Assembly (NCBI RefSeq): GCF_025526975.1
Contig: NW_026515671.1
Location: forward strand, 1,302,001 to 1,366,000
Direction: 5' to 3'
Source: Fimicolochytrium jonesii
Taxonomy: Eukaryota
Length of the DNA stretch: 64,000 nt
In this document: positions 3,474-53,947 of the stretch, one piece after another
Position numbering within the stretch: the first letter of the stretch is position 1
Layout of the letters: each line of letters begins with the position of its first letter
Made by a program: the position numbers and the translations under genes
Notes under the pieces: generated by a model
What the model saw: the letters and a program-made list of their open reading frames with translations, nothing else
What the model was told of the DNA's origin: nothing
Database searches by the model: none

Positions 3474-3641
3474 AGACCACCGCCATTGTCGCTAGGAGCT
3501 TCGATATCGTTTCCATTCTTTGTATACCCATGTATAAATCGTACCTATGTGACATTTTCCAATGATGCAACGTTTCGTTTCCCCCAAAAAAGTGTGTATA
3601 TTTTTCTGCAAAAACAAACCTATGTACATGCGTCGACCCGT

Positions 3642-4136
3642 TCATTTGGACGCCATCTTATACCCAGCCGTATCTAATATCTGCACCCCGCACATCGCAC
3701 ATATCCCTGGAAAATCGAATGGCAGGTTAGCTTCGACCGCCCACCATCAACCCCCAACTCCTACCTACTCCATCCTCTCCCACCTACCATTCTTATAAGC
3801 ACACCCCTGACAATAATGTCTCCCCGCCTGATGCACCGTCTGCTTGCACACTTTGCACTTGGCAGCATAGGGATTGAATTTGCCGCTTTTCTTGGACGAT
3901 AGGAGTTTATTTTCGTTGAGTTTGCGAGTGGAGGTGGAGGTGGAGGGTGTTGATGAGGAGGAGGGTTTGGAGGAGGATGTTGAGGAGTTTTTAGATGCGA
4001 ACGGGTCGGTTGTTGCAAGGGTTGAGAGTTTCTTTTCGCCTGGATTGGGGGGGTGGGAAGAGGGGTATATGCGGTGAGTTTTGGGGTGGGGTGCAGGTAA
4101 TGGACGGGAAGCAATCTTACACTTTTTGCAAACCAT
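3642..4136 (-). CDS. CRIPT: Cysteine-rich PDZ-binding protein (CRIPT)
   Basis: MVCKK-[intron]-EKKL..RKLNENKLL..CKVCKQTVHQAGRHYCQGCAYKNG-[intron]-ICAMCGVQILDTAGYKMASK*. Confidence 0.93.
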
Positions 4137-4527
4137 GGTTGGAGGAAGGATAGACGATAGATTGACTCTAGTGCCGGCGTCTGCAGGGGATCGGGGCGTC
4201 CAACCTGAAAGTTCGCAAGCAGGAGGAAGGCGACAGTACGAATATCATGGTTCCCAGCCGGTCGGCCCGTACCGCGCTCCGGGCGGGCGGTGCCGTAATG
4301 ATCGTCCGGAACTGTCAGCGGCAGCGCCTTCTCTTCTCTTTCCCTTTCTCGCTTGCTTGCTCCGATTTAAGCTCAAACTCCCTCAAGCAAACCAGCTGCC
4401 AAACGTTCTAGACGTCCAGCGCACAACGTTGACCCTGTCGCCTTACCCGGCCTCTCCAACTCTCTTCCTTCCAGCCCGCCCTCCTCACCCCATTCGTCCT
4501 CCCGGGGAACTCCGAAGAAAAGGCGCA

Positions 4528-7837: not shown

Positions 7838-8345
7838 CGTCGGACGCCGAAGCGCTGCCTACGTATCCCGCGTGGGGACTCAGACGTCACGTAGTTCTGA
7901 GGTCGGGCGCCGTAGCGTTGCCTACGTATCCCGAAGGAATCAGACCCCACGTAGTTCTCGGACCGCACGCCGTAGCGCTGCCTACGTATCCCGAAGGAAT
8001 CAGGTCGCACGTCGTTCTGAGGTCGGGCGCCGTAGCGTTGCCTACGTATCCCGAAGGAATCAGACCCCACGTAGTTCTTGGGACCGCACGCCGTAGCGCT
8101 GCCTACGTGTCCCGAAGGAATCAGGTCCCACGTAGTTCTTGTACCGCACGCCGTAGCGCTGCCTACGTATCCCGAAGGAATCAGGTCGCACGTAGTCCTG
8201 AGGTCGGGCGCCGTAGCGTTGCCTACGTATCCCGAAGGAATCAGACCCCACGTAGTTCTTGGGACCGCACGCCGTAGCGCTGCCTACCTATCTTCCCCGT
8301 TGGCGATTGTCGGGGGGGAAAGAATCAGGCCCTGGTAGTTCTCCA
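7838..8345. repeat. Tandem array of ~60-bp units (8 units including divergent flanking units)
   Basis: Core GCCGTAGCG(C/T)TGCCTACGTATCCCGAAGGAATCAG; GCCTAC core at ~7857, 7920, 7980, 8040, 8101, 8161, 8221 and 8282. Confidence 0.95.
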
Positions 8346-8358
8346 GGATATGTCCCCA

Positions 8359-8590
8359 GGATTGCCCAGTCCAGATTGCCGAGTCCAGATGAACGGAATG
8401 ATACCGAGTCCAGATGAATGGAATGATGCCGAGTCCAGATGAACGCAAACCAGATTGCCGAGTGCAGATGAACGGAATGATGCCGACTCCAGATGAATGA
8501 TTGCCGAGTCCAGATTGCCGAGTCCAGATGAACGCAATCAGATTGCCGAGTCCAGATGGCTGTATCGAGATGGCATTGGCGAGTCCGTGG
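8359..8590. repeat. Short degenerate tandem repeat (GATTGCCGAGTCCAGATG-type, ~10 copies)
   Basis: Repeated (GAT)TGCCGAGTCCAGAT(GAA) with variable short spacers. Confidence 0.9.
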
Positions 8591-13034: not shown

Positions 13035-15269
13035 TCACAGCAAAACCTTATGCACACCCCCAACCTTCACATTCCCCCCACCAACCCCCACCACCCTCCC
13101 CTCAACCCTACTCGTCCCCTCTAAACACGCACAAAAAATCGCCTTCCCATCCCTCGCCACCTTCACATGCCTCGGCGCACACCCGGGATCAATCGTCCTC
13201 ACCGGCGTCGCATTCCCACTCGCAAGATCAAACACCTTCACGCCCCCCGTCCCGTTATTCGCGAAGGCGAGGTAGAAGTATTTTTCGTCCGTGTCGACGT
13301 CGAAGGATTGGAACGAGGTGGAGGTGATGTTGGCGTCGGCGATGTTGGAGATGACGCGGGTGGCGGTGGGTGAAGTCGCCGCCGGGTCCCATTTGTGGAT
13401 CGAGCGGGTTGAGGAGCGGAACCAGGGGATCGAAGGGGAATCGTAGCGGTCTTCCATCATGTGCACGGTTGTGGTGTCGTTTTGCTCAAAGGGGTAGGAT
13501 ACGCCCACGAGGGCGCCTAAGCTCTGTGGATTTGGGACCAGGGACCAGCGCACGACGGTACCGGAGAGGTAAAACACGCGCACCTCGTTGGAGGTGGCGG
13601 AGAGGCTGACTGTCCACACCGGGTCGTTGGGGCGGGTGAGGTCCCAGGTAAAATCTTTGAGCGGGACGCCCGTGTAGGTGTTTCCAAAATCGACCAATTG
13701 GAGAACGGGGGGTTTGCCGACGATTTGGTAGATGGTGAGATTGGTGTATGTGGTGGCGTCGCCGCCGAGGAAGAGCGCGTACTGCCCGTCGGAGGTGAAG
13801 AGGGTTTTTTGGACGGGGTGTGCGAGGGGTTCGGAGAAGAGGGCGCGGCCGTCGGTGAGGGTCCAGAGACGGGCGATGTTGGGGCCCGCGGGGTTGTTGG
13901 AGGCTGTGAGCATGATGTCGTTGTCCGTGGGCGATATTGCGGCCGTGTAGCCGTCGTAGGATCGCGCGTATGTGTTTGAGTTTGTGTCATAGAGGTCCCA
14001 AGTGGGTGTGTTGGCTGACCCAGCGAGGAGCCATCGGCCGTCGGGGGACAGACGGGAACTGGAGTAGACCTGGTTGTTTCGCGAGGCGAATGAGGAAATC
14101 GTCCCCGACGGGTCGCTGTAACTGGAGCGCTTCCGAGCTTGAAATGCGTAAATTACCGCGACCACGGCAAGTATTAGCAGGATGCATCCGATTATGCCAA
14201 TGACCCTTATTTTGCGTCCACTCAGGCGGCGACGTAACGACTTCTTCACCGGTGTTTGGCTCTTTTGCGTAATCAGGAGCTCGGTAGAAGGCGGGGAGCG
14301 AGCCAGCGAAACGATTGCAGCACCACCGCTTGACGATTGTCCATCATCAAACCTCGATTCTGGGGAGCTGCCTGGTGCAGCCTCGATATCCCTATCCGCC
14401 ATAGACCCAAGCCCCATCATTGGGAGATTCTCCTGCCTCCAGAGACGCTTCTCGGCCGCTAAGTTCGAAGACCCTGCAGTGCTTGACATTCCTGCCGCTT
14501 GTAAGTAATCCTGCAACGCTTTAGCATCCGACATATCCGGGACGCTTCGTCTTCGTCGTTGAACTGGACGCGTGCGTGGCAGCGACGTGTATTCCGGCGG
14601 TGTATCTGATCCCATCGCCGAGTCAACAAATTCCGCGGCCGAGCTTGAGTTCGAAGCTCCTGCATATGTGCCACGTCTCGGTACTAAGTTTATCACGGCG
14701 AGAACTCTGACCATTCCATTAACATCTAAGCCTCCTAATTTCGGCAAGGACGTGTAAAGGTATTCCAATGGGGAGATCTCCAAAGCACTCGGGAACAGGA
14801 GGGAGACAAGCTGCTCATCCCTCTCGCCATCATCGCCCAAGTCGTCCCCGCCATGCGTTGCAGAATCCCACAATCGCGGGTCATTGAAGGAGACGTTCTC
14901 CCGGATGATGTCGAAGAGGGTCAGATCATGCGGATTGAATTCCAATGGCGAGCCTTTGAAGAACTCTGCGGCGATGAGACGGCGGAGTGCGGTGCCTGTT
15001 TGGTTTATGTTGATGTTTATGACTGCACAGGCTCTGGACCGTCCGAAGACGGCGACGGTTATTGGGGTTTGTGACTGTAAGGTGGTGGTGGTGGTGCCGC
15101 CAACAGGCGTTGGCTCGGTTGCCGTACCATTGCCGTCCCTGTTGGGTGCTGATATGCTATCGGTATTACTGGCGTTCAAGGTGACGGCGTCCGGCGCTGT
15201 CGAACCTGGGGTATCTCTTCTCTCTACCGGCTCCTGTACGGTCGTAGCCGCTGGTGTTCGTTCCGCCAT
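13035..15269 (-). CDS. 744-aa protein: Crinkler (CRN)-like N-terminal ubiquitin-like domain, single TM helix, C-terminal WD40-like beta-propeller
   Basis: Intronless ORF; ITVAVFG..ININQTGTALRRLI..HDLTLF..VRVLAV (CRN-N like); TM VIGIIGCILLILAVVAVIYAF; propeller blades SPDGRWLLAGS, ARLWTLTDG, FTSDGQY, VKVFDLASG. Confidence 0.7.
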   Translation of the reverse strand: MAERTPAATTVQEPVERRDTPGSTAPDAVTLNASNTDSISAPNRDGNGTATEPTPVGGTTTTTLQSQTPITVAVFGRSRACAVINININQTGTALRRLIAAEFFKGSPLEFNPHDLTLFDIIRENVSFNDPRLWDSATHGGDDLGDDGERDEQLVSLLFPSALEISPLEYLYTSLPKLGGLDVNGMVRVLAVINLVPRRGTYAGASNSSSAAEFVDSAMGSDTPPEYTSLPRTRPVQRRRRSVPDMSDAKALQDYLQAAGMSSTAGSSNLAAEKRLWRQENLPMMGLGSMADRDIEAAPGSSPESRFDDGQSSSGGAAIVSLARSPPSTELLITQKSQTPVKKSLRRRLSGRKIRVIGIIGCILLILAVVAVIYAFQARKRSSYSDPSGTISSFASRNNQVYSSSRLSPDGRWLLAGSANTPTWDLYDTNSNTYARSYDGYTAAISPTDNDIMLTASNNPAGPNIARLWTLTDGRALFSEPLAHPVQKTLFTSDGQYALFLGGDATTYTNLTIYQIVGKPPVLQLVDFGNTYTGVPLKDFTWDLTRPNDPVWTVSLSATSNEVRVFYLSGTVVRWSLVPNPQSLGALVGVSYPFEQNDTTTVHMMEDRYDSPSIPWFRSSTRSIHKWDPAATSPTATRVISNIADANITSTSFQSFDVDTDEKYFYLAFANNGTGGVKVFDLASGNATPVRTIDPGCAPRHVKVARDGKAIFCACLEGTSRVEGRVVGVGGGNVKVGGVHKVLL

Positions 15270-15975
15270 GTTCTCCCCAGCGTTTTTCGAACCTTGTCTG
15301 GGTTTCTAGTGGTGCAGGAGCCCAAGAGGTTCCCTGAGCTCACACCCTGTCGTGGTAAGGGTCAGCGCCTGTTGTCAGTGGCCTCTCGCTTCCTTTTTGA
15401 ACCGACCTGCACCTGCAGCGCCCGAAAAGGCCCCCCAGATATCACCGTCGTCCATCCACAGAGGCCGCTTGGACAGTAGGGCGCCAAAAGCAACAACAAA
15501 CCGCAATGAATGATTATAGCGGCGGCACACAGGCGCAAATCGACAGTGACGGCGCTCCTTACGTAAGTCATCTACTTCCTGCGCCACGCCTGCGCCCCAG
15601 CCAGACTCGCAAACAAGGGGAATCGGGTGTTTCCGGGTGGACGCCAAACCAAAGAGAGAGACAACGCAAAAGACAGGGTATACGTCACAAAGCACCCACC
15701 ACGCAAATAGTAACTGACCCTTGGCTCCCGTCTCAACTTTCAATCAGAAAAGTCTCGTCTCCCATGAATGATGAATCACTTGGCTGTTACTATGCGCGCC
15801 CATATCGATGGCTAAAAACTACCGTCGGAATACAGTAAGAAATTTTCCTCAACCCGACTGGGCCCCTCAACCCGACAAAACCCCCCTTCCATCCCGCAAC
15901 TCCATCCCGCAACCACAACGCATCGCTTCCACGACTCCCAACCCACCTCACCCACAAACACATATATTGACAGCC

Positions 15976-17160: not shown

Positions 17161-18535
17161 TCACGATACCCTCCACCTCCCCCACTCCCGAAACACATGC
17201 CACCCCCCTTTACTCGGCTCCTCCTCCTCCCTGACGAGCTCATAGTACGCCACGTCCCATCCCTCACACTCGAACGTGTACACCCGCGCGCCGCCGTGGG
17301 GGTCGCGGAAGAGCGGGGCGAGGAGCGTGTCTGCGTGGTGTTTCATTTCGGCTATGTTGTCAAGTTCGAGGGTTTCGATGGGGGTGAGTGGGTGAGTGTG
17401 GTTGTTGAGGGAGCCGAGGGACTTGGATTTGCTGTTCCGTCGGTGGTTTGGATGGTTATGGTTGTGGTGGTCCCCATGCCCAGCAGCAGCCAGCGACGCC
17501 GGTATCCCCCCCGCACACCCATTCACCGCAACAGCCTCCCTCACCGCCGTCCCCACCATCCTCTTCGCCCCTGCATCCCCTCCACCCGCTCCGGCCACAT
17601 CAGCAATCCTTCCCCCCCTGTTCGGATAATACGCCATACTGATATGATCCCCCCTCTTCTTCGCCGGGCGATTCACGAAGCGGCCCGAATTCTCGAAGAG
17701 TTCCATGATAAGGTTTTGCAGTTCGGTGATTTCGGGGGGTGGGAGGATGGGAAGGACGAGGCAGCGGGGGTTGTGGGGGGGGATGAGGGGGGGGAAGACT
17801 TTTGTGGGGGGGAGGAGGAGGCGGAGGTGAAGGGCTGGGGTGTCGGTGGTGTCGGTGTCCGTTATGGCGTAGATGTGCGGGGGGGTGTCGTTGAGAGGGT
17901 CCTGGGTGGTGGGATGTTGGGGTGGCGATTGTTGTTGTGGTGGTGGTGTTCTTGATGTGCTTCCAGATCCCGTTCCAGATCCCGTTCCAGTTCCAGTTGC
18001 AGTTCCACGTCCATTGATCTCCCCACTTCCACTTCCACTCCCTCCCCTCCTCTCCCTCCAAACCTTCTCCGCCGCCGCCTTCAACGCCGCCTCCACCATA
18101 CCCACCCCATACGCCTCCAGCTCCTCAGCCACACACTGAAACGTCCTCCTTATCTCTCTCCCATTCTTGTCCTTGGGCACGTGCAAATCCCAGAAGCCCG
18201 TGAGCGAGCAGTGCGGGTGGTACGCGTGCGCGTCGGTGGGGCCCCATGACGCGGCGGTGGTTGTGCGGAAGGTGTCGAGGTGGGCTCGGAGGGGGGTGCT
18301 GGGGCGCGGCTCGAGGTAGAGAATCATCTGGTGAGAGGAGAGAGGGGGTTCATGAAGGAGGGGGGTGTTGAGGATATGAAGAACCGAAGGAGGGTAATTG
18401 GGTGTGAGTGGGACGTGGCTTGACATTGGGGTTTGACGTGTGGACGATCTTCGCATCGGTGACATGATTTGCGGCGTAGCTTTCGAGTCGGGAGAGATAC
18501 ACCTCCTCTTGCTCTTCCCTGTCTCCTCCCTCCAT
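17161..18535 (-). CDS. Hypothetical protein with two HxS motifs (2H-phosphoesterase-like); start uncertain
   Basis: ORF 17161-18465 contains ILYLEP..AHAYHPHCSLTGFW and GDHISMAY, and ends WDVAYYE..WHVFREWGRW. Confidence 0.6.
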
Positions 18536-18940
18536 GCTTTTCGATTCCCAAGATGGCTTCTCGTCCGTTCGACAATCGTGGCGTCCCTCGTTCACTCCAC
18601 GTCCCGACTGACGTGCGAGAGGACAACGACATGGGGTCGATGTCCCCTCGCCGTGTCGTCGCCTTGAGGCTTCTTGATACGTACCTTGGGCATTGTTGGT
18701 CTATGTCTATTGGCGTTGCTGGCGTTACTGGTGGTTGGGGTGCTTGGGCCGTGAGAAAAAACGCGTCCCACAAACAAGAGAGAAGGACCTCCACTCCAAC
18801 CCAACATTACACCCACATTACCCCGGCATCCAACACGGCAGTGGCGAACAGCTCAGCACTATTACCCCGTACGCCAGCAGAAGAACCACAGCTGAAACCC
18901 CCGTCGTCACGCACCCACTCCCCACGTTCGTTCCATAACA

Positions 18941-27309: not shown

Positions 27310-29497
27310 ATGAGTTTGTTTTCACCACCAAGAAGCCAGCAAAATAAGCTGCAGCAACAGCAGCAGCAACAGCAGCAGCAGCAACCATTACGTCCAGGGA
27401 CTCAGCAGCGTCTTCCGGCCTCGCCGTTGTTCCAGCCACGCAGCTTGAATGACTCCCTAACGTCCTCACCGCTCTTAAAACCCGCGACCATCGAACAGAA
27501 GCCTCCGCCACCGCCGCCATATCGTCTTGAGAACGACCCAGTTCAAGGCCGCTATACTGTAGCCTCCTCCGACGTCCCCGCCAACACCGCCCTCTTGACT
27601 TGCACACCCTACGCCTACGCTATCTTCGACTCCCACAAGAAGCGAGTGTGCGGGGTATGTCTGGACTTCAACGACAATGGAGCTTTTCACCTGCACTGCA
27701 GGAACTGCGACCAGGTGTATTTGTGCTCACCTGCTTGCCTTGCTAACCTGCTGGCGAACGGGCATCATGTGGTGTGTGGGGCTCTTCGGCGGTTGGCGAC
27801 GCATAAGGCGCCGCAACATGAGAAGAGCGTGTTGAAGATTCTGCTGATGACGCTTTATGCGCGGTAAGGCCGTTGATGTACAACGCTGCGTCTTACATCC
27901 CTTCGTGACCGCCGCTGATACCACGTCTTGCGTCCCTCAGGCATGTGGAGCGCGGCCGGAATGTGCATATATCGAATACGTTGCGGGACGCGATATCGTT
28001 GGCTTCAGCACCACCATTTATACTGAATGGCAGCGCGGCAGAAAACAAACCTGCTGGGTCAGTCCAGCAGGGCAGTGATCAAGCATCAGCATTAGGCGAA
28101 GCTGCCATTTTAGGGACGGGAAAGACATGGGCGGAGGTGGACAATCTGCAGTCGCACTACAGCTCTTGGCCGTTGGAAGATGCGAAAGATTGGCGAAAGA
28201 CGAAGAATCTGATAGTAAAGCTGCTCGAGGACTGTGGCTTGCTGGAGAACGGTGACCGGGTGCCGCCAATACCCCGGGGAGATCCGTCGGACTTTGTTCT
28301 GCATCTGGTCAGTAAGATTGAAAGCAACGGGTTCGGGTTGTGGAGTCCGAAAACCGAGCAGTGTATGGGGAGAGCTCTTTTTCCCAATGCGAGTTACTTC
28401 AATGTGAGTGCGATGGAGATTCTTGGCGTCGCAGTATTTCTGGTTGCAGTATTGCACGAAAGTCTTACTCCATCGTAACTCCCGAACAGCACTCCTGCGA
28501 TCCCAACACCAGCGCAACCCAAGCAGCAGACGAAATAACATTCCGCACCAAGCGGCCCGTGAAACAAAATGAGCCGCTCACCATCTCCTACATCGACGCC
28601 AACATCCCACTCCACGCGCGTCGCTCACGTTTACAGCAGGAATACTACTTCCATTGCATGTGCAGCAGATGTGTAGCTGAAGAGGCGCGGGTTCCGAGCG
28701 CGGCGAAGGTCGGCTCGCCACGCCCGAGCTCTATTCCCAACATGGACTTAGGAAAGGATCAGGGTATGGGATCGGCCAACGCGCTGCACCCGCTGCACCC
28801 CCTGCCGACGAATCCGGTGATGCAGAACGCATACCCGCGGAAAGTCACCTACGAGAGGAGCTTCAATCAGAATCGGAACCGTGGAAAGGCAGTCAGTCAT
28901 GGACCAAATAGAGCGGCACAGGGGCCCAAGGGCCCGTTCAACAGAGTGGACTCGGTACCGACATCCGCAACACCCATAGCAGCACCCACAAACCCAAATC
29001 CCATCCCCACACCCGACGCACCAATACTATTACCCATCTCGCAGCCATCGCGGTACCAACCCGTAGTGCTGTCGCCACCAACCCCACCACCTTCATCCCC
29101 AGCCGCCGTCGAATGCATCTCCCCCGCTTCAGTGCTTGCTTCCAGCGCACATCTACATTCGGGGATATCCTCACCGCCCATTACCAACCAGTCGGTCATC
29201 ACCCCACCGCGGGATACCTATTCCAATTCACACGGTCCATCCTCTGGCGGTGTGCCCAAATCTAGACCACCGCCCCGGCAAGGTCAGGCGCCGCGACGAC
29301 TTCCGCTAGGTGCCCCGGACGTGTCGGAAGTCCGGCAACGTGCGGTCGCAAATATTCGCAAGCTGAGCAATGCCCGACCTCGGCGGCAGCAGGGGCAGGT
29401 ACATAATCAGCAGAGACCCGCGGGGCAGTATCAGCAGCAACAGCACCAGAACACACCCAAAGACACGCCCGCGCCGGCATCATCACCGGCGTCGTGA
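27310..29497 (+). CDS. SET/MYND (SMYD/Set6-like) lysine methyltransferase with polyQ N-terminus and low-complexity tail
   Basis: GRYTVASSDVPANT, MYND-like CGVC..CRNC..CSPAC..HHVVC, ESNGFGLW, ALFPNASYFN-HSCDPN, LTISYID, YYFHCMCSRC. Confidence 0.9.
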
Positions 29498-42345: not shown

Positions 42346-43611
42346 TTGATCGTCGTAGAATCGGTTCTATTTTTCGTTTTGGTGAGACGGATTGCAGAGA
42401 GTATGGGCGTCAGACAGTTGCAAACGAGAGACGGCGAACATAGTATGGGCTTACCATTGGACGGAGTACACCTGCTTCAAGGACAGTGTCCAATGGGTTG
42501 CTTCGTGTTTTACTGCTGAACACCTGGAGGTGTAACTCTCGGCGAAAGCTCTTCAGCTGAGAGCAAGTTTTCTTCTACGTCCGGCAAGGGGGCACAGCAT
42601 GGGAGAGTGGGTGGCAATAAGTTATATGCAGTATGATAACAGTGTGGGTTTTGGCTGCCGGGGGTGGTTGCGAGTTCGCAGTGAGCCGGTCCCGTCAAGA
42701 AGGCCAGCGGGACAGGCAAACGGCGCGAAGGTTTCTGTCAACACGTAAGCGGGTTGGCCTTCGAACGACCCCTTGAGACCCCGCAATCACGGGAACGGGC
42801 TTGCCTCGGCTAACAAGGACATGTAAAGGTAACCGGCAGCGGAGTCATAATCGCATCGTCTACGCTTTCTACATGCTCGCTCCCTAGAATATGTATTGTC
42901 CCAAGAAGGACTTTGGGGTGCTACCATGTCAAGGGAATTTTCCTGATTGCTCGGAATACAGTCACAGAAAGAGAAAAGTGTTTTTGAGAGACATGGGCTA
43001 CTCCAAGATCAACAAATTTTTTTCTTCACTTCAATACACTGTTTTCAGCCCTCTCGGAAGGGTCCATTATCGTCCAAGTTTCCTCTGACGTTACATGCTC
43101 CTGCTTCTGCTGCGGCGTGTCATCCGCGAGTGCTTGCTTTTGGCAGGCGTCTTACGACTCCGGGCTTTGCTGCAGGTACGGCTTTTGCTCCGACTACGGA
43201 TCCGGCGGCTACGGGCCGTTTGCCTCCCTCCACCATAGTAGATGATATTGTTGACGTTCGGCGACTTTCTCCACAACTCGTTGTGGTTGCGCCAAACGTC
43301 ATTGGGGATACACCCGACGCCTCTCCACCAGACGTGGCCTTTGTCACAATACGGCTCGCGTTCGCGGGCCGGTGTGATACCCAAGGCGTGGTGCCGCCTG
43401 TCTGTTTCGTCCCTGTTCACTCGCAGGATGGAGGTCAAGCGTTGAAGGTGAGCCATTTTATCATGGTCTTCCATGTAAGTGGCAAGCAAGGACTCGGTCC
43501 GTGTGGCCTGTCTTTACTTTTCTGCCTCATAATACAAGTTCCAGGGTTTGTATCGTTCCTCGGGCATTGGCAGGACCCGAGTGGCGGCGGGTGGCGGGGG
43601 AGGTAGGTTGT

Positions 43612-43766
43612 TCGCTTGCTGTTGACGCAAGTCCAAGGCCCCTTCATAGCTTGAGCGGTGACGGGTGGCCGGGGAGAGTTCCTGCTGTTGCTATTGCTCG
43701 CTAGCTGTTGACGCAACGTCCAAGGCCCCTTAATAACTTGAGCGGTGACGGGTGCCGGGGGAGGGT
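43612..43766. repeat. Two-copy ~86-bp tandem duplication
   Basis: TCGCT(T/A)GCTGTTGACGCAA(C)GTCCAAGGCCCCTT(C/A)ATA(G/A)CTTGAGCGGTGACGGGTG at ~43612 and ~43698. Confidence 0.9.
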
Positions 43767-43980
43767 CCCCGCCTCCAATGAACCCCATCAACTGTTGCAA
43801 CATGTCCTCTTCTTGCTTCATAGATATCTAAAATGTTTCTTAACTCTTCAGGCTCGGGGCAAATGGCCGTCACCGAGACCCAACCATCCGAGTCTCTGCC
43901 GCTCCCTCTCTGATCGCTCAATTGTAACCGGCCGCCGATTTCTCCCCTTCTTGTTCGCTTCAGGAAGTTCGAGTATAGCG

Positions 43981-44809
43981 CTAGTTGCGGTTGTCCCCAC
44001 CACCCACTGGTCCAATAGGAAAAGGTAAGTGAGGCGCGGAAGACCTATAGAGCAACCTGTCGCTCTTCTCCATCTCCCGAATCTGAGCCAGTTTGTTCAG
44101 GTAATAGATTGCGGTCTTCTTGTTCTCCTCCTCCCATTGTTTCCCAGCCTGTCGCGAGTTGCTCGGCGCTTCGAATTCAGACTCCAACAAGGCGGTAGCC
44201 ACAGCCAGAGTCATTCGATTTCCCTCTATGTCTTCAGCCGGGTGAACGTCGGAACTCGCAACTTTCAGAAGCTGCATCGTCTCGGCGAAAGTGCGTTGTG
44301 ACAGCTGAGCATCCGGAAACCACTCCTTGCAGATCCTATCAGCCCTTTTCCCTATCATGTGTCCGAGCTATCTCACGGGCTTGCCCGATAGACATCTCCA
44401 GAATGTCATCTTCTTCCCAGTAGGAAGTGGTATCTACCGCCAGAAAGGCCCGCTTCAATTCGTACTCTATGTTGATGGCGATCGTCCTTCGGATTGAGCT
44501 TTCGTGGGTGTCGGTAACGAGACGGGCTACTTGTTGAATCAACTTCCCGGTCTTGATAGCGAGATCGTCCACGGCGGCCTGAATCGTGCCCACAGACGAT
44601 TCAAGATGCTCTGTGAACGTGAGGACAAGCTCGACCTGATCCTGAAGCTGCCGGATACGACTCGTTGTCACGGCATCGCGCAGTTGCTGACGTTTCTGAC
44701 GGAGGTCGTTGAGCTCGCCCGCATGCGCCACCTTCTGCTCGACGACCATTTTCCTGCAGAGCTGCAGCTCATGGAGCTGGGTGAGAAGTTGAGCTCTGCG
44801 TGCTTCCAT
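43981..44809 (-). pseudogene. Coiled-coil hypothetical protein, frameshifted near 44340-44360 (pseudogene or unresolved intron)
   Basis: ORF 44809-44339 (heptad-rich) continues in another frame as 44358-43981 (ICKEWFPDAQLS..KKTAIYYLNKLAQ). The obvious GT..AG candidate does not restore the frame. Confidence 0.45.
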
Positions 44810-45214
44810 GTTGAATGTCGTTCCTATACCACAGGCACAGTAGCAACCACAGGCACATACGTTAGCGCTGGACTCGTGACGTTAGCGCGGGCGTGGGTGC
44901 TAACGCGTGTGAAGCCACGTTAGCGCAGGACGAATGCCACTCACCATGCCTACAGCCTTCACGCTCGGCCTTGACGCGCGGCCTAAAAGGAGCCCTCCTT
45001 CCCAACCACCTTCCCTCCCAACGCAATTGTGAGCAGTAGGCCTCCCCGCTTTCACCTTCAGCCGCCACCAGGTAGCAGCCGCAATTCCTCACCGCTCTCA
45101 GCCTCATTACCACAGCACTGACGTGAGCTCTTTGACACACAGCCATCGCGGCAATCACCTGCAGCACCTCATCTCTAGCACGCACAGCACAGCACAGGCA
45201 CAGCACAGCCAATC

Positions 45215-48116
45215 ATGTCGCTCCAGGGGCACCTGTGGTGTGGCTTCTTTACCGGAGCCACCACACCACGGCGGAAGAGGAGGAAGGTTACTCCGGCTAC
45301 CCCGCGGCTGCCCATAAATCTGCCAGCCGCTGTGCAGACACCATTGCAACAACCCCCGCGATTCGAGTTCCCACCGTCTGTCCAACGCCACTTGCCCCAA
45401 GCAATTGCAGACATGGTTAGCGAGAGTTCCGGCGAGAGTTCCGGCGATGAAGACGGGCAGCAGCAGCAGCAACAGCAGCAAGGGCTTTCACCCGTGGACA
45501 GGGGCCTGCAGCGTCCGTTGAACCTCCCCGCTCCCATCCCGTTCCTTTTTCCCAGCACACCGGGTGGACCCCTGGTGTATGAACCCCCGCCACCACCACC
45601 CCCTCAACGACCCCGCTCGCAAACACACGCCAGCACCAAGGTTTCGCTTCACCGAATCATCCATAATCAAGCTCAAAGGGAGCAAAGGGAGCACCTGACA
45701 GCATTCATCGGCAATGTTCACATCCTTGCGCGCCACACCACCTTCTTTCTCAAGTACTACCTTGGTGAGTTTTTGGGGTACACTGCACTGTATATTTCCC
45801 ATGAAACAATGCCCTGACCGCAATGCCCGCCACAGCTGACCGTCCTCTACACGATTTCCCGGACATCACCGACAGGCACATCGGTGTGATGTTTGAGCTG
45901 CTCAACAATCCAGGCTACAATGGCAATCCGGTCATCGCGCAAGAGTTGCGTCCACGGGTTCAAGACTACTGTGATGTTCACGGATTCGCCCCCATCCGCA
46001 TGCGAAATTGCCAACAGACCGCAGCGTACACGGCTACGAGCATCTTCACAAACCTCAAAGTCAACGTACAAGAGCATTTCATTCAAATGCTTCTGCGCTA
46101 CGTCAATGAAAGGCTTGGTTTGAAACAAGTCGTACTGCATCTCCGTAGAGCCGGAGTCAACCGAGCGCAGCGGAGACGGTATTATCAGCGGTTCCGTCAA
46201 TTTACAAAATACGCGACGTTTGAGGAGTTTCCAACCGAAGAGGAGTTTGCCCGGCTCACACGACTTGAGCGGACTGTCCTCGACGAGCTATGGGCTCTGT
46301 TTCCTCCCCAGGATGAGCCGCTTGCGTACAGCCTTGCGGTGGACGCAATGCCATATTTAGGTGAGTTAGTATATTTCCGCCCCCCCCCCCCCCCCGCTTC
46401 CTCTTTTGTCTAATCATGGTCCGCACCTGCCTCGCCTCATCACAGGTGCCTATTGTGAGCTCTCACGCCTCTATGAGCGCCGTGGAATGCGGCTGTTTTC
46501 GGCTATCCCGCTGCGCAAATCTCGAATCCAGTCATCTGTTCGGATCGACACGCTGATCCTAGGCACTCATATCCTGGGCTTGAGCCGAAGTCGCATGGGG
46601 AAATTCACCGATGAACGCAAGCGGGAGCTGTGGGGGCAGTTTATCAACGTGAATGTAAGTCTCTATCCCTCTGCGCTTATTTCACTCACCTCACGTCGCT
46701 GAATGACGGATTGCAGGACAAGGTCTTCAAGCATCGAAAGAAGCTTGGTCTTAAATTTGATGGATCAATCAGCACAAACGGGTATTCCGCTACCATCCAC
46801 TTCAAGAAGCCAGGGCTCAAGTATGGGCATTGGGCCCGGAAGCGCAGCAAGGCCCAAATGCGGGAAGAAGTCAAGCAGCTGTATTTTCAGCACCACATCG
46901 CCGAACTACGGGAGGCTCCAAACATCGTCAGCATTGATCCGGGCAAGCGTGACCTCTTGTTCTGTCGAGACATCAAGAAGGAGCGGCCATTTAGGTACGT
47001 TTCAGTTGATTACTACTGCCCTGCTGTCCCCGCTACCCCCCCCCCCACCCCCGTCTCCGCCCGCCAGCCCCCCGTCTCCACCCGCCAGCCCCCCGTCTCC
47101 ACCCGCCAGCCCCCCGTCTCCACCCGCCAGCCCCCCGTCTCCACCCGCCAGCCCCCCGTCTCCACCCGCCAGCCCCCCGTCTCCGCCCGCCAGCCCCCCG
47201 TCTCCGCCATCCCCGTTGCGGCGACATTCCGTTGCAGCGTCCTCACAATTCACCACCCCATATCAGATACACATCCAATCAACGGGCGGTCGAGACAAAG
47301 TCTCGGTACTTTCAAAGAGACATGAGAGAGCGAAAGATCAATGCCGGCATCGCTGAGATGGAATCACATATTCCATCGCACAAGAGCATGAACATCGAGG
47401 CGTTCTCAGCGTTCATTGTGGATCACGTACATGCGGGTATGATGTATCATGCATTGTCTTCAAATTTGGTAACACGTGGGCTGACATCTATATCCCAGAT
47501 CCCGCCCTGGATGAGTTTTACCAGGATGAGATTCACGTCGCTCGCAGATTCAAGGTGTTCTCACTGCGGCAAAAGTCTGAGAGCAAGCTCATCAAAAACA
47601 TGCGACGCCTGTATGGAAAGCATTTTTCGGTCATCTTGGGTGATTGGAGTGACGCTGGAAAAACCATGCGCTTTCAGGAGTCATCAAAGACCAAAGGGTG
47701 AGTGACCATCATTGTTTTTTATGTATCATTATGCTAACTCATCATGGAACAGATTCCGCACACTCTTTGCGAGAAACGGCATTCCATGCTACTTGCTGGA
47801 TGAGTATCGAACGTCGTCCGTGTGCCCACACTGCCACGGGCGTGTGAGGAAAAACATCCAACGCCGGCTGTCACCTCGGCCGTGGCAAGCTCGAAAGGGA
47901 AGAATGGAATTCGTCCATGGATTGGTGGGTTGCCCCAACCCCGAATGTATCAACCAAGACTGGACGCCATTTGAGATTCCTGGAAGACGACCACTACGAC
48001 TACGGATGAAAGTGCACAATCGGGACGTCCTAAGCACCAAGAATTTCGTCTCGATTGTGCGCTCGGTGGTGTTTGGCGATGGCCGCAGACCAGACGCATT
48101 CTCCCGTAACCGGTAG
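45215..48116 (+). CDS. Fanzor1-type (eukaryotic TnpB homolog) RNA-guided RuvC endonuclease, 7 exons, ~764 aa
   Basis: Exons 45215-45764, 45836-46360, 46446-46654, 46717-46994, 47267-47436, 47499-47697, 47753-48116 (2295 nt, all GT-AG, frame-consistent). Motifs: FDGSISTNG, RuvC-I IVSIDPGKRDLL, RYTSNQR, VILGDWS, RuvC-II LLDEYRTSSVCPHC, zinc finger ..HGLVGCPNPEC, RuvC-III HNRDVLSTKNF, C-terminal RPDAFSR. Confidence 0.92.
47048..47208. repeat. 21-bp minisatellite (7 full + 1 partial copies) inside Fanzor intron 4
   Basis: CCCCCGTCTCC(A/G)CCCGCCAGC repeated at a 21-nt period; the intron is 46995-47266. Confidence 0.97.
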
Positions 48117-48145
48117 TCTAGAATTTTCACCCCATTCCATTTTCC

Positions 48146-48352
48146 GTGGTGGTTATCTGCCATCCACATCATTGTACCTCTGCCTGAGGCGTCGCCGATG
48201 ATGGCAACTTGTATTCCTTCATCGTACAACGTACAACGAAGTCTTCTTTACATATGGCTTGACACTTGGAGTGCAGCCTCCACGGTAAGACGCGCACGGA
48301 CACCCATCATCAGTGTGCCAAGGCCATAGGTGACACTTCGACAAATGCACAG
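48146..48352 (+). ncRNA. Candidate Fanzor omegaRNA (scaffold plus putative 3' guide); ends uncertain
   Basis: Directly downstream of the Fanzor stop. Stems: CATCATTG/CGATGATG (48167-74/48196-203), TATGGCTTGACACT/AGTGTGCCAAGGCCATA (48253-66/48312-28), TGGAG/CTCCA (48267-71/48278-82); possible pseudoknot CACC (48301-04)/GGTG (48329-32). Confidence 0.5.
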
Positions 48353-49279
48353 GACCCTGGCGCGGGGCGGGGGCGGCCCGGCGGCGGAACTGGCGGCGCT
48401 GGAGGGATCTGCGTGTCTGAAGTTTTGTGCAGACATGGCATGCCGTTTTGCATATGGCTGCAGTACCGCTGCCAGGAGACTCGAGATGATATCGTATGAG
48501 AAAGTTCAGTCTGGCTTCATGACACATGTGCAGTCTGGCCTGTGGACACTCAGATTTCCGTAGTCCGTGCAAATGGTGCGGCCAGTGAAGGTCGCAAAGG
48601 ACTGTTGTGTGTTTTGTGTGTGTGTCCACGTCATGACGGCCCCCTGTCGATCGGTCACACCATTGTTGCCGCCTCCACAATTCTGGGAGGTTTTGCGAGA
48701 GACTGCGCCTGCCGGGAGCGTCTGTCCCAAAGAGAGGGTCAAGCTGGAAATCCTTCCTCCTGCGAGTCTTTCCGGCTGTGTTCCATGGATCCTGGGCCGG
48801 TTGTCTTCTGCCAGAAGAGAGCCTTCACGACAAAAGCGCGGCGAGCAAGCCCTGTCTGTCCGCCTCTCTCGTCGCCACTTTCCCTCCCGCCCCGCCTCGC
48901 CCGCTTTCGCTTCACACTTCCTCACTTTGAGTCTCAGCCAACTCTCGTTCGGAGGTCACAGAACTGCCGCTGTTGCTTTCCTTTCACACCTCCCACCTTG
49001 CGAAAGCGCACCGCGTCACTAGCCGTCACAACTCGCTAGTGCCGTCTTGTCGGGCCCAAAGTTATACCGCAAATACTAGTCTGCGACCAAGATCCCTTCC
49101 GCCAGCATCCGAGAGCCACCCTTCAAACCCGCGGCCACTACCCTTACATAGTCAAGCCCTTCCAAGCCCTGTCGTGGAGAGTCGAGATCAACTTACATAT
49201 ACAGTACGGCTTCCGCAGACGACAAGGCGCGTCAGTCCAATCACCATAGACCGCAATACCATTGGAACACCCAGCGACA

Positions 49280-52200
49280 ATGGACCGTCGGCAGACACCA
49301 TACCGGTCGTCAGTACAGGGCAGCGTGCAGGAAGAACGAGCCTACTCAGACACCTTCCTCCCTCTTTCCAACAACTCGAGCGACTTTGTGCCCGCACATC
49401 GCAAAACGCAGTCCGTCGAGATCTTGACGGACTGGCTCAACGCTCGCCCCGACACCACAACACCACCTTCACCTACCGCTTCTCGCCCCTCATTAGCAAC
49501 CCCGACGCCGAAAGTCACGACGCTCAAACGAACCAACACCAACCGCTATAAGAACTCGCCATTACGCAACTACACATATTCACCGAAATCGATAGAGGAC
49601 CTGCGGGAGGCGTGGCGCCAGCATAATCCCTATAAGTTGAAGAGCGTCTCGCCGGATCGGAGGACGGATAACTCCTCTACTTCGCCAACATCGCCCGTTT
49701 TGGCTTTTGCCGCTGACCTGCCGCCATTACCAGCGTTGCCCGTTCCGGAGGATGGCTACGTGTCCGCAACTGATGGGTCGATGACGGATTTCACGGATGT
49801 TGATGCGGAGGAAGGCGCCGCGGTGAGATCGTCTACAATAGAGGTCGAATCGCCTCAGGATCCCGAGTCTCCGGCGCAGAGCAAAGGCGGGAATTCGGAG
49901 AATACGTCGTCCCCCACGTTGAGCATTAACGAGCTGATAGACGGGTATGACGCCATGCGAACATTGGGGAGAAATCCGGAATCTGCAGTGAAGAGAGCTG
50001 AGACCCAGCAGAGTCCGAAAGCAGCGGACGAAGATGTGTTTTACACGCCTATGGGCATTCCACCTGCGGCGGAGGGCTCATATTTCCCGGCACGACCTAC
50101 AGCTGGCGGCGCCTCGAATGCTGCACCTATCCCGCCGCCTAGGAATGGAAGCAAACACGCGGGTCCGAGTGATGCGAGAACATGGGAGGCTATCATCGAG
50201 CGACTGGAAGGATGGGTGTCGATGTTGGATGCCATGTCTGAGCGACATACTCGGACAAGTCAAAGCACGCCTACCCCTGCTCCGAACTCCTTGTCGGTCC
50301 GAACACATAAGGATGCGCCTTCAGGAAGTCAAAGCGTGCGGTCGCCAACCTCACCGCTACCGAGTGGAGCTCCGCGAAACAACTTCAAGTTCCAGGTAAC
50401 AGTGGGCGAGGACAATCGGATCCATATTGAGATCGACCCGACAGGTGCCGACATTGTCGCAACCTCGCCAACTGTGCAGGTCGCCAACATCCAGGGCCGT
50501 GAAGACGTGTCCTGGGAACACGACGCAACGAATCGCTCGACGCCCACCCCTTCTTCGAATCCTCGTGACCTCAGCTGGGATAGACACGGAAAAGAACGTT
50601 TCCCAACCACAGACTCGGCTGTATCAGGCGTCGGGTCGTTCGAAACCAGCACACCGGCGTCATCGCCTCGGAAGCTTACCACCCTCACCCTTCCATCATC
50701 GTCATCTCTTACTTACACAAGCGCGAAACAGCCTGGAATTTCATCCCCCGCGAAGACGGCCAGCGATCCTGGCTATATGTCTGCCAATTCTTCCCTATTG
50801 ACATTCGGCGATCTGGTGCCGGACATGTCGCATGTGATCGTGAACCCGGGGCAGCATCTCAAACAGGTCTCAGTGGTGCCAGGCTCGCCGATACGAAATT
50901 TGGATGAGGGTCACAAGGCTAGTATCGTGAATACCGCAACCCGTGCGCCAGCGGGTGGTGTAGCAGCAAATAGCGGGTCACGGGCGGGGCCATCCTCTCC
51001 CCTGGCGTCCTTGGCTGCAAAGATTTCATCGCTCGACAATGGTCAGGAATCGTCAACCTCTTACCACACGGCCGCTGAAAACCCATATCCCGAAGAAGAT
51101 TCGACTCCTAGTCCCTTTGACGAACCCTCTGGCCCACACAACGCCGTCTTTGAGTATGTCATCGACACCGGAAAACACAATGTTACCAAACACCTTGTAG
51201 CGGCAACGCCTGTCAAATTGGTCGAGTACCTCACCACGGATGCTCCCCCGGATTTCGTAGTAGATTTCTTTATCACTTACCGGGTCTTTATGAGCGCAAA
51301 GTCGCTGATGAGTCTGCTCCTGCAACGAGTGGTGTGGTGTCTCAGAGGCATGTGGAGCGGTTCGGGGACACAGGAAGGGAGACGGCGCCTCGTGCTGGTG
51401 AAAACGCTGATGCTGTTGGAATACTGGGTGGATTTGCAGTATGATGTTGATTTCGCACCGTCGCGGACGCTGAGGGCTTCGCTGAACACGTTCCTGAAGA
51501 CGAAGCTTGAATCGCATCCAAACCTTGCCAATGGGTCAACGAATCGACAGACGCGGTCGGATGCGGGTGAGGAGGAGAACGTGGCGGCACAAGTGCGTGC
51601 ATTGCAGGACCTTCTGGTTGTGAGGAAAGAGCAACGGCGCATGCGGAGCAGGAGCCGCGATCGTTTGAGGAGTCGAAGTAAACATCACAGGTCTGGCGCA
51701 CCTTCTCGCAGTTCCCACCGGCACAATCATTCAGACGATGAGACCCGGTCTGGCGGACACAGCGACACGTCGCACCGACGGAGGTGGCATGGGGATCAAA
51801 CGGAGCCCACGCTTTATGTCAACAGGATCAAGGGGAGTGATACGGGAAGTAATCGCAGCCCGCCGAATAATAGTGCAGAAAGCGTCATCTACGCGGCGGG
51901 CGGCAAGAGTTCGCCGGCTCCCTCTGTTGGAAGAATCGACTCACCCGACGCCCGATCGCAACCGTACATGTTCTTCCCGGAAGTTAGGCCGTCGGTGGAT
52001 ACCATCCGCTCCGGGGTATCATCGCAGGTCACGGCGGCGTCGTCTACCGTGCCGGGTCAACAAAGCCGGACATGGAAGTCATGGATCTTCCGAAAGCATG
52101 GACATCGGGCGACAATCCTAGATCCACCGCCATCGGAGGGCAGTCATCTTTCTCCGAAATCGTCGCAATTGTCGCTGCACATGGCAGGAAGTCGCTCGAA

Positions 52201-53947
52201 CACGCCTACGCCCTCTCTTCCCGACCCGCCGCACCCTGGCGCACAATCTATACATCGGTCTTTCCTTGTCGACTACCCGCCTCATGCTCTCGCTCAGCAT
52301 TTTACGCACATCGAGCAGCAGTACATCCTGCAGGTCGATTGGCCGCACCTTCTCCTCACGCAGAGCTGGAAAGTCAGATCCAGCGCGGGATTCAAGACTG
52401 TTCCGGACGTCTGGAGAGTGGTCGATAGGTTCAACGCGACATGCTGGTGGGTAGCCCGCGAGCTCAGCAAGTGTGAGGGAGGCGCGCAGGGAAAAGCGGC
52501 GATGCTGGAGCGGGTGGTGGAGATGGCGAGGATCGCGGCGCGGTGGAGGAATTGGTCTACGGGGCTAGCCTTTGTGTTGGCCGTGCAATCAGTGTGGCCG
52601 CTGCAGGGCGGCGAGGGACCAGGTGTCGATTCGTACAAATTCGCTTACGATACGTTGCCGTTGGGGATCCATGGCGGTAGCGGTGGTGGCAACAAGGCAC
52701 CGCCGACTGTTGCGAAGAAGGCCTCGTCTGCGAGCTTGGGACACGGTGGCGCATCGTCTAAGGAGGCTGGAAAGGACGGCGTTGTCAATGTATGGCATCA
52801 TGTTCCCGAGTCCACTCGCCAGGCCTTCACTAAGCTCCTCGAGTTTGCCGACCCCGCCCGGGCCAAATTCGCAAAGCTGAGGGAGGTGCAAGAGACGTGC
52901 GCTAAGGAGGTGGTTCTGGATTGGGATACTTGGTGGTCTGAGCGCCCTGATCGTCGGAAGGCGCGCGTCGACACCAAAGGCAAAAGACCCGCGGTGGGTG
53001 CGTCGTCAACCACAAAGCCTACACGGCGGATGAGACGAGCGGACATGTTATCTTGGACGAATCCGGATGCGGCTCACGAAGATGAAGACGAGCCACAGGA
53101 GAAGTCGCTGTGTGCTGTGCCTTTCTTCGGCCTCTTCCTCAGCGACCTAGCGTACGTTGATGAGGTCGGATGGTTTTTCGAGCCTTTCGTTGGCCCCGGC
53201 TCGTCATCCGAGTCGTCTGGGTCGGACCATCAACGTCACGGGCGCATCCAACAGCAACAGAAACAGAACAAGGACGCGTTCCTCACAGGCCCGCCACGCC
53301 ACCGTAGCAGTCGCTCGCGATCGAAGTCCCGGCCACGGACACCCCCGAACCAGACCGAGTCTGCCCCCGGGTTGTTGCCCGCTGTACCCCCGCTCTCTCC
53401 CTTGTTCAAACCGACAGACACAACGTTCTTGTCCTCCGTCGTCACTGCTGCCTCGCCTCCGAAATCAGAACGCAAGGACCCCGCGCTGCCTACGTCCGCA
53501 TCAGAAGCAGGAAGGTCGGTGCCGCTGGCGTCGTCTCACGTGGTTGCGACGACGACCCCCAGTCAGTCTTCATCACCTGCCACCGTCAAACAATCATCAC
53601 ACCCGCACCACTCACCCCAACGTCTCGTCAACCTCAAACGCGCCCGCCGCACCGCCGCCATCATCCGCAACTTCCGCTCCTTCCAGATGCCCGAACGGCG
53701 ATACCCGCTCCTAGACGACGACGACAGCGACGACGACGGTCTGGACTGTCATAATGATTACCACCATGATGATGGCGACGCGTATGGCGATCACCACCAT
53801 TATCGATACGAGTACTACAATTCCGATCTAGAGCCTCGGAAAGCGGCTGCTGCGCGACAGCGGACTGAGCAGGAGGTGGCGGCTACGCGGCGACGGAGGG
53901 CTGTTCTGGCGGAGGGCGTGAAGAGTCTGGGGGGATTGTTGGGGTGA
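49280..53947 (+). CDS. Large RasGEF (REM + CDC25 domain) protein, Lte1-like, intronless ORF
   Basis: REM: ATPVKLVEYL..DFVVDFFITYRVFMS..YWV. CDC25: LAQHFTHIEQ, FNATCWWVAREL, NWSTG, AVPFFGLFLSDL, LVNLKR. Confidence 0.85.
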   Translation: MDRRQTPYRSSVQGSVQEERAYSDTFLPLSNNSSDFVPAHRKTQSVEILTDWLNARPDTTTPPSPTASRPSLATPTPKVTTLKRTNTNRYKNSPLRNYTYSPKSIEDLREAWRQHNPYKLKSVSPDRRTDNSSTSPTSPVLAFAADLPPLPALPVPEDGYVSATDGSMTDFTDVDAEEGAAVRSSTIEVESPQDPESPAQSKGGNSENTSSPTLSINELIDGYDAMRTLGRNPESAVKRAETQQSPKAADEDVFYTPMGIPPAAEGSYFPARPTAGGASNAAPIPPPRNGSKHAGPSDARTWEAIIERLEGWVSMLDAMSERHTRTSQSTPTPAPNSLSVRTHKDAPSGSQSVRSPTSPLPSGAPRNNFKFQVTVGEDNRIHIEIDPTGADIVATSPTVQVANIQGREDVSWEHDATNRSTPTPSSNPRDLSWDRHGKERFPTTDSAVSGVGSFETSTPASSPRKLTTLTLPSSSSLTYTSAKQPGISSPAKTASDPGYMSANSSLLTFGDLVPDMSHVIVNPGQHLKQVSVVPGSPIRNLDEGHKASIVNTATRAPAGGVAANSGSRAGPSSPLASLAAKISSLDNGQESSTSYHTAAENPYPEEDSTPSPFDEPSGPHNAVFEYVIDTGKHNVTKHLVAATPVKLVEYLTTDAPPDFVVDFFITYRVFMSAKSLMSLLLQRVVWCLRGMWSGSGTQEGRRRLVLVKTLMLLEYWVDLQYDVDFAPSRTLRASLNTFLKTKLESHPNLANGSTNRQTRSDAGEEENVAAQVRALQDLLVVRKEQRRMRSRSRDRLRSRSKHHRSGAPSRSSHRHNHSDDETRSGGHSDTSHRRRWHGDQTEPTLYVNRIKGSDTGSNRSPPNNSAESVIYAAGGKSSPAPSVGRIDSPDARSQPYMFFPEVRPSVDTIRSGVSSQVTAASSTVPGQQSRTWKSWIFRKHGHRATILDPPPSEGSHLSPKSSQLSLHMAGSRSNTPTPSLPDPPHPGAQSIHRSFLVDYPPHALAQHFTHIEQQYILQVDWPHLLLTQSWKVRSSAGFKTVPDVWRVVDRFNATCWWVARELSKCEGGAQGKAAMLERVVEMARIAARWRNWSTGLAFVLAVQSVWPLQGGEGPGVDSYKFAYDTLPLGIHGGSGGGNKAPPTVAKKASSASLGHGGASSKEAGKDGVVNVWHHVPESTRQAFTKLLEFADPARAKFAKLREVQETCAKEVVLDWDTWWSERPDRRKARVDTKGKRPAVGASSTTKPTRRMRRADMLSWTNPDAAHEDEDEPQEKSLCAVPFFGLFLSDLAYVDEVGWFFEPFVGPGSSSESSGSDHQRHGRIQQQQKQNKDAFLTGPPRHRSSRSRSKSRPRTPPNQTESAPGLLPAVPPLSPLFKPTDTTFLSSVVTAASPPKSERKDPALPTSASEAGRSVPLASSHVVATTTPSQSSSPATVKQSSHPHHSPQRLVNLKRARRTAAIIRNFRSFQMPERRYPLLDDDDSDDDGLDCHNDYHHDDGDAYGDHHHYRYEYYNSDLEPRKAAAARQRTEQEVAATRRRRAVLAEGVKSLGGLLG

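Follow-up and report, generated by a model that had tools for sequence, protein, structure and literature searches.

The window considered here is a stretch of 64,000 nt from the chytrid Fimicolochytrium jonesii (NW_026515671.1, positions 1,302,001 to 1,366,000 of the forward strand), and positions below count from its first letter. At 45215-48116 on the plus strand it holds a Fanzor1 gene, close to that for SpuFz1 of Spizellomyces punctatus, whose seven exons, joined via six GT-AG introns, give an uninterrupted frame of 2295 nt (764 residues and the stop codon). The first-pass annotation, made from the letters alone, had proposed a six-intron frame of 765 codons with introns of 71, 85, 62, 272, 62 and 55 nt, all GT-AG, and that is exactly what was found; also as it claimed, CTRAY branch sites are present in introns 1, 2, 5 and 6 and absent from introns 3 and 4.

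Gene structure and splicing

Exon 1 (45215-45764, +; residues 1-183) specifies about 130 disordered Pro/Gln-rich residues followed by the first WED strand and the first REC helix. Within it the basic stretch PRRKRRKV (residues 18-25; 45266-45289, +) is, from its sequence, a likely nuclear localisation signal, and is one that we take to resemble the SV40 type. N-terminal nuclear signals are common in Fanzors according to the available text of PMC10530073. Intron 1 (45765-45835, +; 71 nt, GT-AG, branch CTGAC at 45814) leads to exon 2 (45836-46360, +), the REC domain, where Q243 and Q244 correspond to SpuFz1 Q129 and Q130, A247 stands for N133 and the loop 207-216 is without an Arg for R96, all mapped by eye. 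Intron 2 (46361-46445, +; 85 nt, GT-AG) contains a run of C, and exon 3 (46446-46654, +), shared by REC and WED, has R406 in alignment with SpuFz1 R291. Intron 3 (46655-46716, +; 62 nt, GT-AG) is followed by exon 4 (46717-46994, +), with the WED hairpin, N449 (46777-46779), Y464 (SpuFz1 Y345) and the RuvC-I aspartate D502 (46936-46938). Intron 4 (46995-47266, +; 272 nt, GT-AG) contains a minisatellite, 7.5 copies of a 21-nt unit at 47048-47205, and in the paralogue P0033 another repeat, which is read through, occupies the same place. Exon 5 (47267-47436, +) specifies RuvC helices and exon 6 (47499-47697, +) the RuvC part with GDWS and the lid loop; introns 5 (47437-47498, +; 62 nt) and 6 (47698-47752, +; 55 nt) are both GT-AG with a CTRAY branch. 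Exon 7 (47753-48116, +) carries the RuvC-II glutamate E661 (47802-47804), the zinc finger C668-C709 (47823-47948), the RuvC-III aspartate D735 (48024-48026) and the stop.

Retention of any single intron brings a stop within 1-110 codons. The deposited protein KAI8824436.1 (P0001) is residues 202-764 letter for letter, so that the database model uses introns 2-6; it omits exon 1, and the intron-1 junction is present in 6 of the 52 models compared. When the spliced protein is set against 13 related metagenomic or assembly loci, no intron-sized gap is seen at any of the 66 junctions that could be tested, out of 78 (six in each of 13 loci). Judged on such comparisons, the gene model is more than a chance joining of frames.

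Is exon 1 truly part of the protein? In the predicted model of P0022, a full-length paralogue, residues 1-127 have pLDDT below 50 and a strand lies at 134-140. The first 130 alignment columns are filled by a mean of 4.6 of the 57 outside homologues, and columns 135-180 by 45 of the 57. By eye, H138 and K142 of the window protein align with SpuFz1 H21 and K25, which touch the guide duplex. The strand and these counterparts make exon 1 needed, and the spliced model is better than the database one.

SpuFz1 itself is intronless. Several of the related loci are themselves interrupted elsewhere: their introns fall at two positions, one behind the NxR helix (near residue 278) and one behind HGLL (near residue 702), both recurrent in relatives and neither used in the window gene (L001 ~650-750; L002 ~1236-1300 and ~2576-2638; L003 ~388-560; L007 ~4036-4097). 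The six introns of the window gene are unlike one another, and from the sequences they were most likely gained in the F. jonesii lineage.

Identity as a Fanzor1

All the motifs claimed at first sight are present: IDPG (D502), GDWS (625), DEYRTS (E661), CxxC (668-671), CxxxxC (704-709) and NRD (D735). The Fanzor pattern given in the available text of PMC3627910, D-X(125,275)-[TS]-[TS]-X-X-C4 finger-X(5,50)-RD, is matched by D502, 161 residues, T664 and S665, the finger C668-C709, 24 residues, and R734 with D735; the RuvC-II glutamate is in the rearranged position, E661 being followed after six residues by C668.

Both profile and structure comparisons bear out the identification as a Fanzor. P0001 matches the SpuFz1 chain 8gkh_P over 543 of its 563 residues (phmmer E 3.5e-139), and the last exon alone retrieves, among solved structures, SpuFz1 (E 7.4e-28) and PpFz1 (E 1.1e-10), together with 13 protein clusters, all from F. 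jonesii. The predicted models, of P0001 (pLDDT 76.6) and of P0022 (pLDDT 82.3; 88.6% identical to the window protein), were used for fold searches. With P0022 seven Fanzor1 chains come first (E 1e-53 to 1e-19) and Cas12f next (5e-6), the TM score to SpuFz1 being 0.92-0.93 with an rmsd of 2.7-3.2; P0001 gives the same order, with the seven Fanzor1 structures on top. The protein has the enlarged REC/WED fold and resembles solved Fanzor1 more than it does TnpB, Fanzor2 or Cas12. Among 1.84 billion representatives searched, 1893 relatives reach E 0.001 or better. In a quick tree, which leaves the sister group of the F. jonesii rows unfixed, four F. jonesii rows group together (100) inside an 18-row group (91) that contains a SpuFz1-like protein. 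With Pfam, neither the seven exons nor P0001, P0012 or P0022 reached a family cut-off, and the top match was Cas12f1-like_TNB at E 0.004; a precomputed label, PF26935, is on record and is absent from our own Pfam results.

The neighbours of the Fanzor gene in the window are spliced fungal housekeeping genes, for which reason an endogenous giant-virus setting was rejected; even the best segments of 30 viral loci show a match of no more than 20-38%.

The likely right end and a candidate guide RNA

The earlier description of the gene was sound; what it missed was the right end and, with it, a candidate guide RNA. Two soil metagenome runs from one study, X1 and X2, contain pieces of a close relative. 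Three X1 contigs depart from the window after 48213, their flanks agreeing at only 0.55, and the sequence at 48213 ends in TA, 97 nt past the stop. The RNA of SpuFz1, as described in the available text of PMC10432273, has a 75-nt scaffold ending at the TA of the element and a guide of 14-15 nt from the flank. A 75-nt scaffold that ends at 48213 would begin at 48139, and the 19 bases from that point agree with the start of the SpuFz1 omegaRNA at 14 positions (by eye; P 1.2e-5, fixed register), including U5-C6-C7, which in SpuFz1 touch the protein. A TA target duplication at 48213 is, we strongly infer, where the element ends on the right, with 48139-48213 as RNA scaffold and 48214-48228 as guide, the evidence for the end being contigs of one run (X1) from a related organism. 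For the likely 75-nt scaffold (48139-48213, +) the contig exits, the SpuFz1 register and folding concur. The predicted 15-nt guide (48214-48228, +), host flank to the right of the element, follows from the SpuFz1 layout and the X1 contigs, and has no second match with fewer than four mismatches in the window.

Stem-loop 1 of the likely omegaRNA (48146-48167, +) has seven pairs, with pair probabilities of 0.63-0.86, and the loop TTATCTG, one base more than that of SpuFz1. By eye, three two-sided changes and one one-sided change separate its stem from the SpuFz1 stem with all seven pairs kept, and a seven-pair first stem is a feature of three solved Fanzor1 RNAs in the published text available. 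It is the only hairpin of its type on either strand of the window. The same hairpin lies 3' of the stop in L004 and L008, two of the 31 usable related loci (five more were too short and seven not entered), against a background of 0.003 per 330 nt, and 29 of the 31 are without it by the hairpin rule used. The P values for the hairpin and for the 19-base match are both generous, since the rule was widened to a 7-base loop and the 19-base span picked after the candidate had been seen. A second stem in the SpuFz1 register would have four pairs, two of them wobble, with pair probability near 0 and at a cost of 6 kcal/mol, and folds of the whole region are not unusual (z -0.75 to -1.92). Beyond its first stem the omegaRNA is, in the available reports, little constrained. 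A likely right end, a seven-pair stem-loop and a target duplication within the scaffold, the marks of a Fanzor1 omegaRNA, are all found here, at the level of sequence only.

A longer stem between 48146 and about 48280 was dropped as lying beyond the inferred element end, and the one Rfam match is at chance level. Contig depth is 19-21 at the right end and 2-8 in the gene body; the higher value might hint at gene-less copies, but depth here is no copy number.

The left end and a presumed mover

Immediately upstream, at 43984-44809 (-), is a gene corresponding to P0209 (KAI8824435.1), with relatives P0210 and P0211 at 45-50%. It has a frameshift near 44350, which P0209 bridges by an intron over what is coding sequence in the relatives; it received no Pfam or Atlas assignment and, when considered as a transposase, was not recognisable as one. 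With a single model in F. jonesii and two relatives elsewhere, it probably lies outside the element, and the left end is thus expected in 44810-45214, the stretch most likely to hold both that end and the promoter. No inverted copy of the right end was found there, alignment scores being at background, and none of the left-end candidates 43533, 44856 and 44951 rises above background. At 44856 there is CATA, after which the sequence is unrelated. Of the six short pieces obtained by comparing runs X1 and X2 with 43200-45440, five (35-41 nt) have the look of chance; the sixth, of 65 nt, covers 45079-45143. The terminal inverted repeats of ~30 nt that mark the Spu-1 type are thus not seen: the right end is at a TA and has no inverted copy in 44810-45214. 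The alternatives are decay of the left end in this copy and an element of some type other than Spu-1. The same stretch has CGTTAGCG three times (44860, 44880, 44918) and CACAGGCACA three times (44830, 44848, 45193), and neither occurs elsewhere in the window; these repeats could be promoter or subterminal binding sites. A bacterial promoter scan was set aside as not applicable to a fungus.

No transposase family was found among 145 window frames of at least 125 residues, a scan in which short exons could be missed; the 13 other frames, of 158, share sequence with the Fanzor gene or with the gene upstream of it, and the coding frames of those two genes were scanned separately. The earlier statement that no transposase is in sight is upheld, and so is the proposal of a non-autonomous element. 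Two related Fanzor1 genes have clear inverted repeats, unlike the window copy: L012 at 3542-7509 (35 nt) and L007 at 1721-4580 (135 nt). L012 has no long transposase frame inside. Its ends have what we take to be a Tc1/mariner look.

Copies in the genome

Cluster look-ups gave 61 F. jonesii models of the family on 33 contigs, every one of which aligns to the gene; the multi-copy, mobile context in a eukaryotic host is that of Fanzor1, and such numbers signify a mobile family rather than a single host gene. E661 is covered by 51 models, on 31 contigs. Triad and finger are together in 19 models, five of which also have the exon-1 strand; most family models are short or broken. Last-exon identity has a median of 91% (43 models). 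The copies were compared as annotated protein models, not as genomic DNA, and since one locus is in places split over adjacent accessions, the figure of about fifty loci is a minimum taken from annotation and no count. Coverage is about 10 models at the N-terminus and about 50 at the C-terminus, an excess that is biased because the search used the last exon. P0022 has all six junctions, and the introns and the N-terminal arm accordingly predate the spread. Run X1 pieces differ from the window at 21 codons, 13 of which change the residue, and the X2 piece at 11 codons, 8 of them silent.

Residues and the prospects for activity

The catalytic triad D502-E661-D735 and the four zinc-finger cysteines are intact. 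No paralogue that covers E661, C668, C704, C709 or D735 has a change there; D502 is retained in 27 of 28 and C671 in 51 of 52. The lid loop is identical to that of SpuFz1 at 13 of 17 positions, and RuvC-I has DPG instead of the SpuFz1 DPN, as does PpFz1. Mapped by eye, SpuFz1 Q129, Q130, R291, Y345, R387, R407, R414, R481, Q482, K483, R531, W570, W596 and N604 have identical counterparts, and N133, R415, R419, R420, W603, Y602, K562 and S567 are without a kept one.

In 83 columns that are at least 70% conserved in the 57 outside homologues, the window protein differs at 13. One of these is N449 in the WED domain, which is Asp in all 57; among paralogues it is Asn in 19 of 23 and Asp in 3, P0022 and P0023 being two with Asp. 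No role for this Asp was found in the Fanzor literature as far as its text is available, and Asp to Asn is a mild change. The REC loop that bears R96 in SpuFz1 is five residues shorter here, and as aligned it has neither Arg nor Lys to enter the TAM groove. According to available portions of the literature such an Arg is conserved in three Fanzor1 structures and its match is essential in GtFz1; it is also absent in P0054, and hence is not a strict family mark. With Ala for SpuFz1 N133, a target motif other than CATA is predicted. W467 is private to this copy, 19 of 24 paralogues having Arg. Over 746 positions this copy departs from the family majority at 38, and 11 of these changes are private to it, on account of which the open frame is no proof of selection; over residues 540-764, 8 of 43 paralogues are nearer the family majority than this copy.

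The original wording 'probably active' was too strong: it passes over Asn449, the want of an R96 counterpart and the 11 private substitutions, and neither a left inverted repeat nor a transposase was found. We would put activity of this copy as rather better than an even prospect.

A proposed mechanism and its rivals

The reading that we favour, and hold to be fairly probable, is of an intact six-intron Fanzor1, one of about 50 copies, likely carried on a non-autonomous DNA transposon, whose protein likely binds the right-end RNA and would cut the empty site left after excision. The gene structure, the triad, the zinc finger, the kinship with SpuFz1 and the many copies are its firm components. 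By analogy with SpuFz1, the spliced protein would enter the nucleus via its basic N-terminal signal, read a short motif ending in TA to the left of the target, a motif predicted to differ from the SpuFz1 CATA, and cut both strands with its one RuvC site. From SpuFz1 biochemistry and TnpB homing, protein and right-end RNA would recognise and cut the junction that excision leaves; if bacterial TnpB is a guide, repair from the sister copy would then restore the element. A transposase elsewhere in the genome would be what moves it. Restorative homing has been demonstrated for bacterial TnpB and is extended to Fanzors in the review PMC13565253, as far as its available text goes; no homing test for a Fanzor was found in the available Fanzor literature.

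Might the frame be open and the nuclease nevertheless dead or much weakened, the family spreading passively by means of a transposase elsewhere and this copy simply not yet broken? The Asn of 19 of 23 paralogues at an otherwise invariant WED Asp would accord with that, as would the lost groove arginine, the private W467, the weak second stem, a family consisting mostly of annotated fragments with exon-1 strand and triad together in only five of 61 models, and the 13 residue changes among the 21 differing codons of the X1 soil pieces. However, the triad and zinc finger are nearly invariant over about 50 paralogues, two-sided changes keep the first stem-loop, the exchange at 449 is mild, and 8 of the 11 codon differences in the X2 piece are silent. 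We regard a dead nuclease as unlikely, though well short of far-fetched. A shade more doubtful, and more adventurous, is a still-active lineage that gained its six introns and disordered arm before spreading to at least 50 sites and that rebuilt its DNA-reading surface (no groove Arg, Ala for the TAM-reading Asn, Asn for Asp), so as to use a motif new or looser than CATA on an element without matching inverted ends.

A place for the gene in host service at a fixed position, the 'domesticated' option of the first-pass annotation, would explain the six introns and the long N-terminal arm, and the intron sites not common to relatives and a window devoid of transposase and of an inverted repeat pair are compatible with it. 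Against this are the 61 related models on 33 contigs, most of them short or broken, the presence of exon 1 and the same junctions in other copies (in P0022 all six, so that introns and arm predate the spread), a right end that joins differing flanks in another organism, and the fact that this copy is not unusually near the family majority; domestication is extremely improbable. Hardly better, though just short of that extreme, is an element larger than the Fanzor gene, starting at 43533 and with the frameshifted upstream gene as cargo. Eight bases at 43533 do match the right end in inverted orientation, but about 0.5 such matches are expected among the 1994 TA sites, a second occurs at 36637, 43533 is inside a run of broken reading frames, and the upstream gene has a single F. 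jonesii model.

Comparison with known systems

SpuFz1 and its element Spu-1 (PMC10432273; PMC3627910; PDB 8GKH, 9CEU-9CEZ) come from Spizellomyces punctatus, which is of the same fungal order as F. jonesii, Spizellomycetales. Identity is 42-44% in structural alignments; domain order, triad, zinc finger and lid are the same, both elements are multi-copy and Fanzor-only, and in both a 75-nt scaffold begins about 22 nt past the stop and ends in TA. The SpuFz1 gene, however, is one intronless frame of 638 residues, whereas the window gene is split by six introns and its protein has a disordered N-terminus longer by about 120 residues. Inverted repeats of 30 nt bound Spu-1, which duplicates TA and has CA just ahead of its left end; for the window element no such repeats were found and the end sequence differs. 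The protein differs in DPG for DPN, the missing counterparts of R96 and N133, and Asn for the WED Asp. PpFz1 of Parasitella parasitica (PDB 9CF0-9CF3; PMC11423790, available text) shares the common Fanzor1 fold, DPG at RuvC-I, a first loop of TTATCG type and a short second stem; identity is, however, about 21%, and its RuvC insertion is missing from the window protein. Intron-bearing Fanzor1 genes of CrFNuc type (PMC10530073; PMC3627910) have in common with the window gene a host-like intron density and N-terminal nuclear signals, the gain of both in Fanzors being already described in the accessible part of PMC10530073, which gives up to ~9.6 introns per kb for Fanzor1 genes, as compared with 6 in 2.3 kb of coding sequence here; they ride on algal Helitrons, whereas the window gene has no assigned carrier.

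The gene had been called likely uncharacterised; taken to mean unseen, that is overstated for the family. Yoon et al. 2023 (PMC10711439) have 33 F. jonesii proteins of the family in Table S2 as Fanzor HMM hits, all of them pieces, the longest of 410 residues. Neither KAI8824436 nor any of five long paralogues looked for is in that table, and the available text of PMC10711439 gives no gene structure, ends or RNA for the F. jonesii entries. A literature search for Fanzor in Fimicolochytrium or chytrids turned up no publication that deals with this protein; Fanzor and Fimicolochytrium occur together in a single paper, where Fanzor is named in the references only, and there was no match to the F. 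jonesii protein in nine supplementary files of PMC10432273 and two of PMC10530073.

The window gene is a further Fanzor1 close to SpuFz1, not a new kind of system; what is new, as read from sequence, is the likely right end at 48213 and the likely 75-nt guide-RNA scaffold. SpuFz1 is the most engineered Fanzor editor and is restricted to the CATA motif. A natural relative at ~43% identity, with a full protein model, a compact predicted scaffold and a guide boundary, is directly testable for another motif. Database models hide such genes, the deposited one being without the first WED strand and the published census having only fragments. About 50 copies in one genome, moreover, make it possible to test whether selection acts on Fanzor activity as the element transposes, and how six introns come to be gained by a mobile gene.

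Other features of the window

Two weak tblastn matches to single distant Fanzor homologues, at 6755-6907 (-; E 0.005) and 28541-28726 (+; E 0.007), are probably chance. Open frames at 13038-15305 (-; 756 residues) and 17164-18591 (-; 476 residues) have no Pfam match. To the left of the upstream gene, 43091-43830 (-) has a run of coding-like frames, interrupted by a stop and by shifts, and an 87-nt duplication (43619-43797); it is possibly a decayed gene. A long RasGEF gene (49250-53947, +) begins about 1 kb right of the element end, and tandem arrays occupy 7844-8558, one with a 60-nt unit (7.4 copies) and an adjoining one of 25/54 nt.
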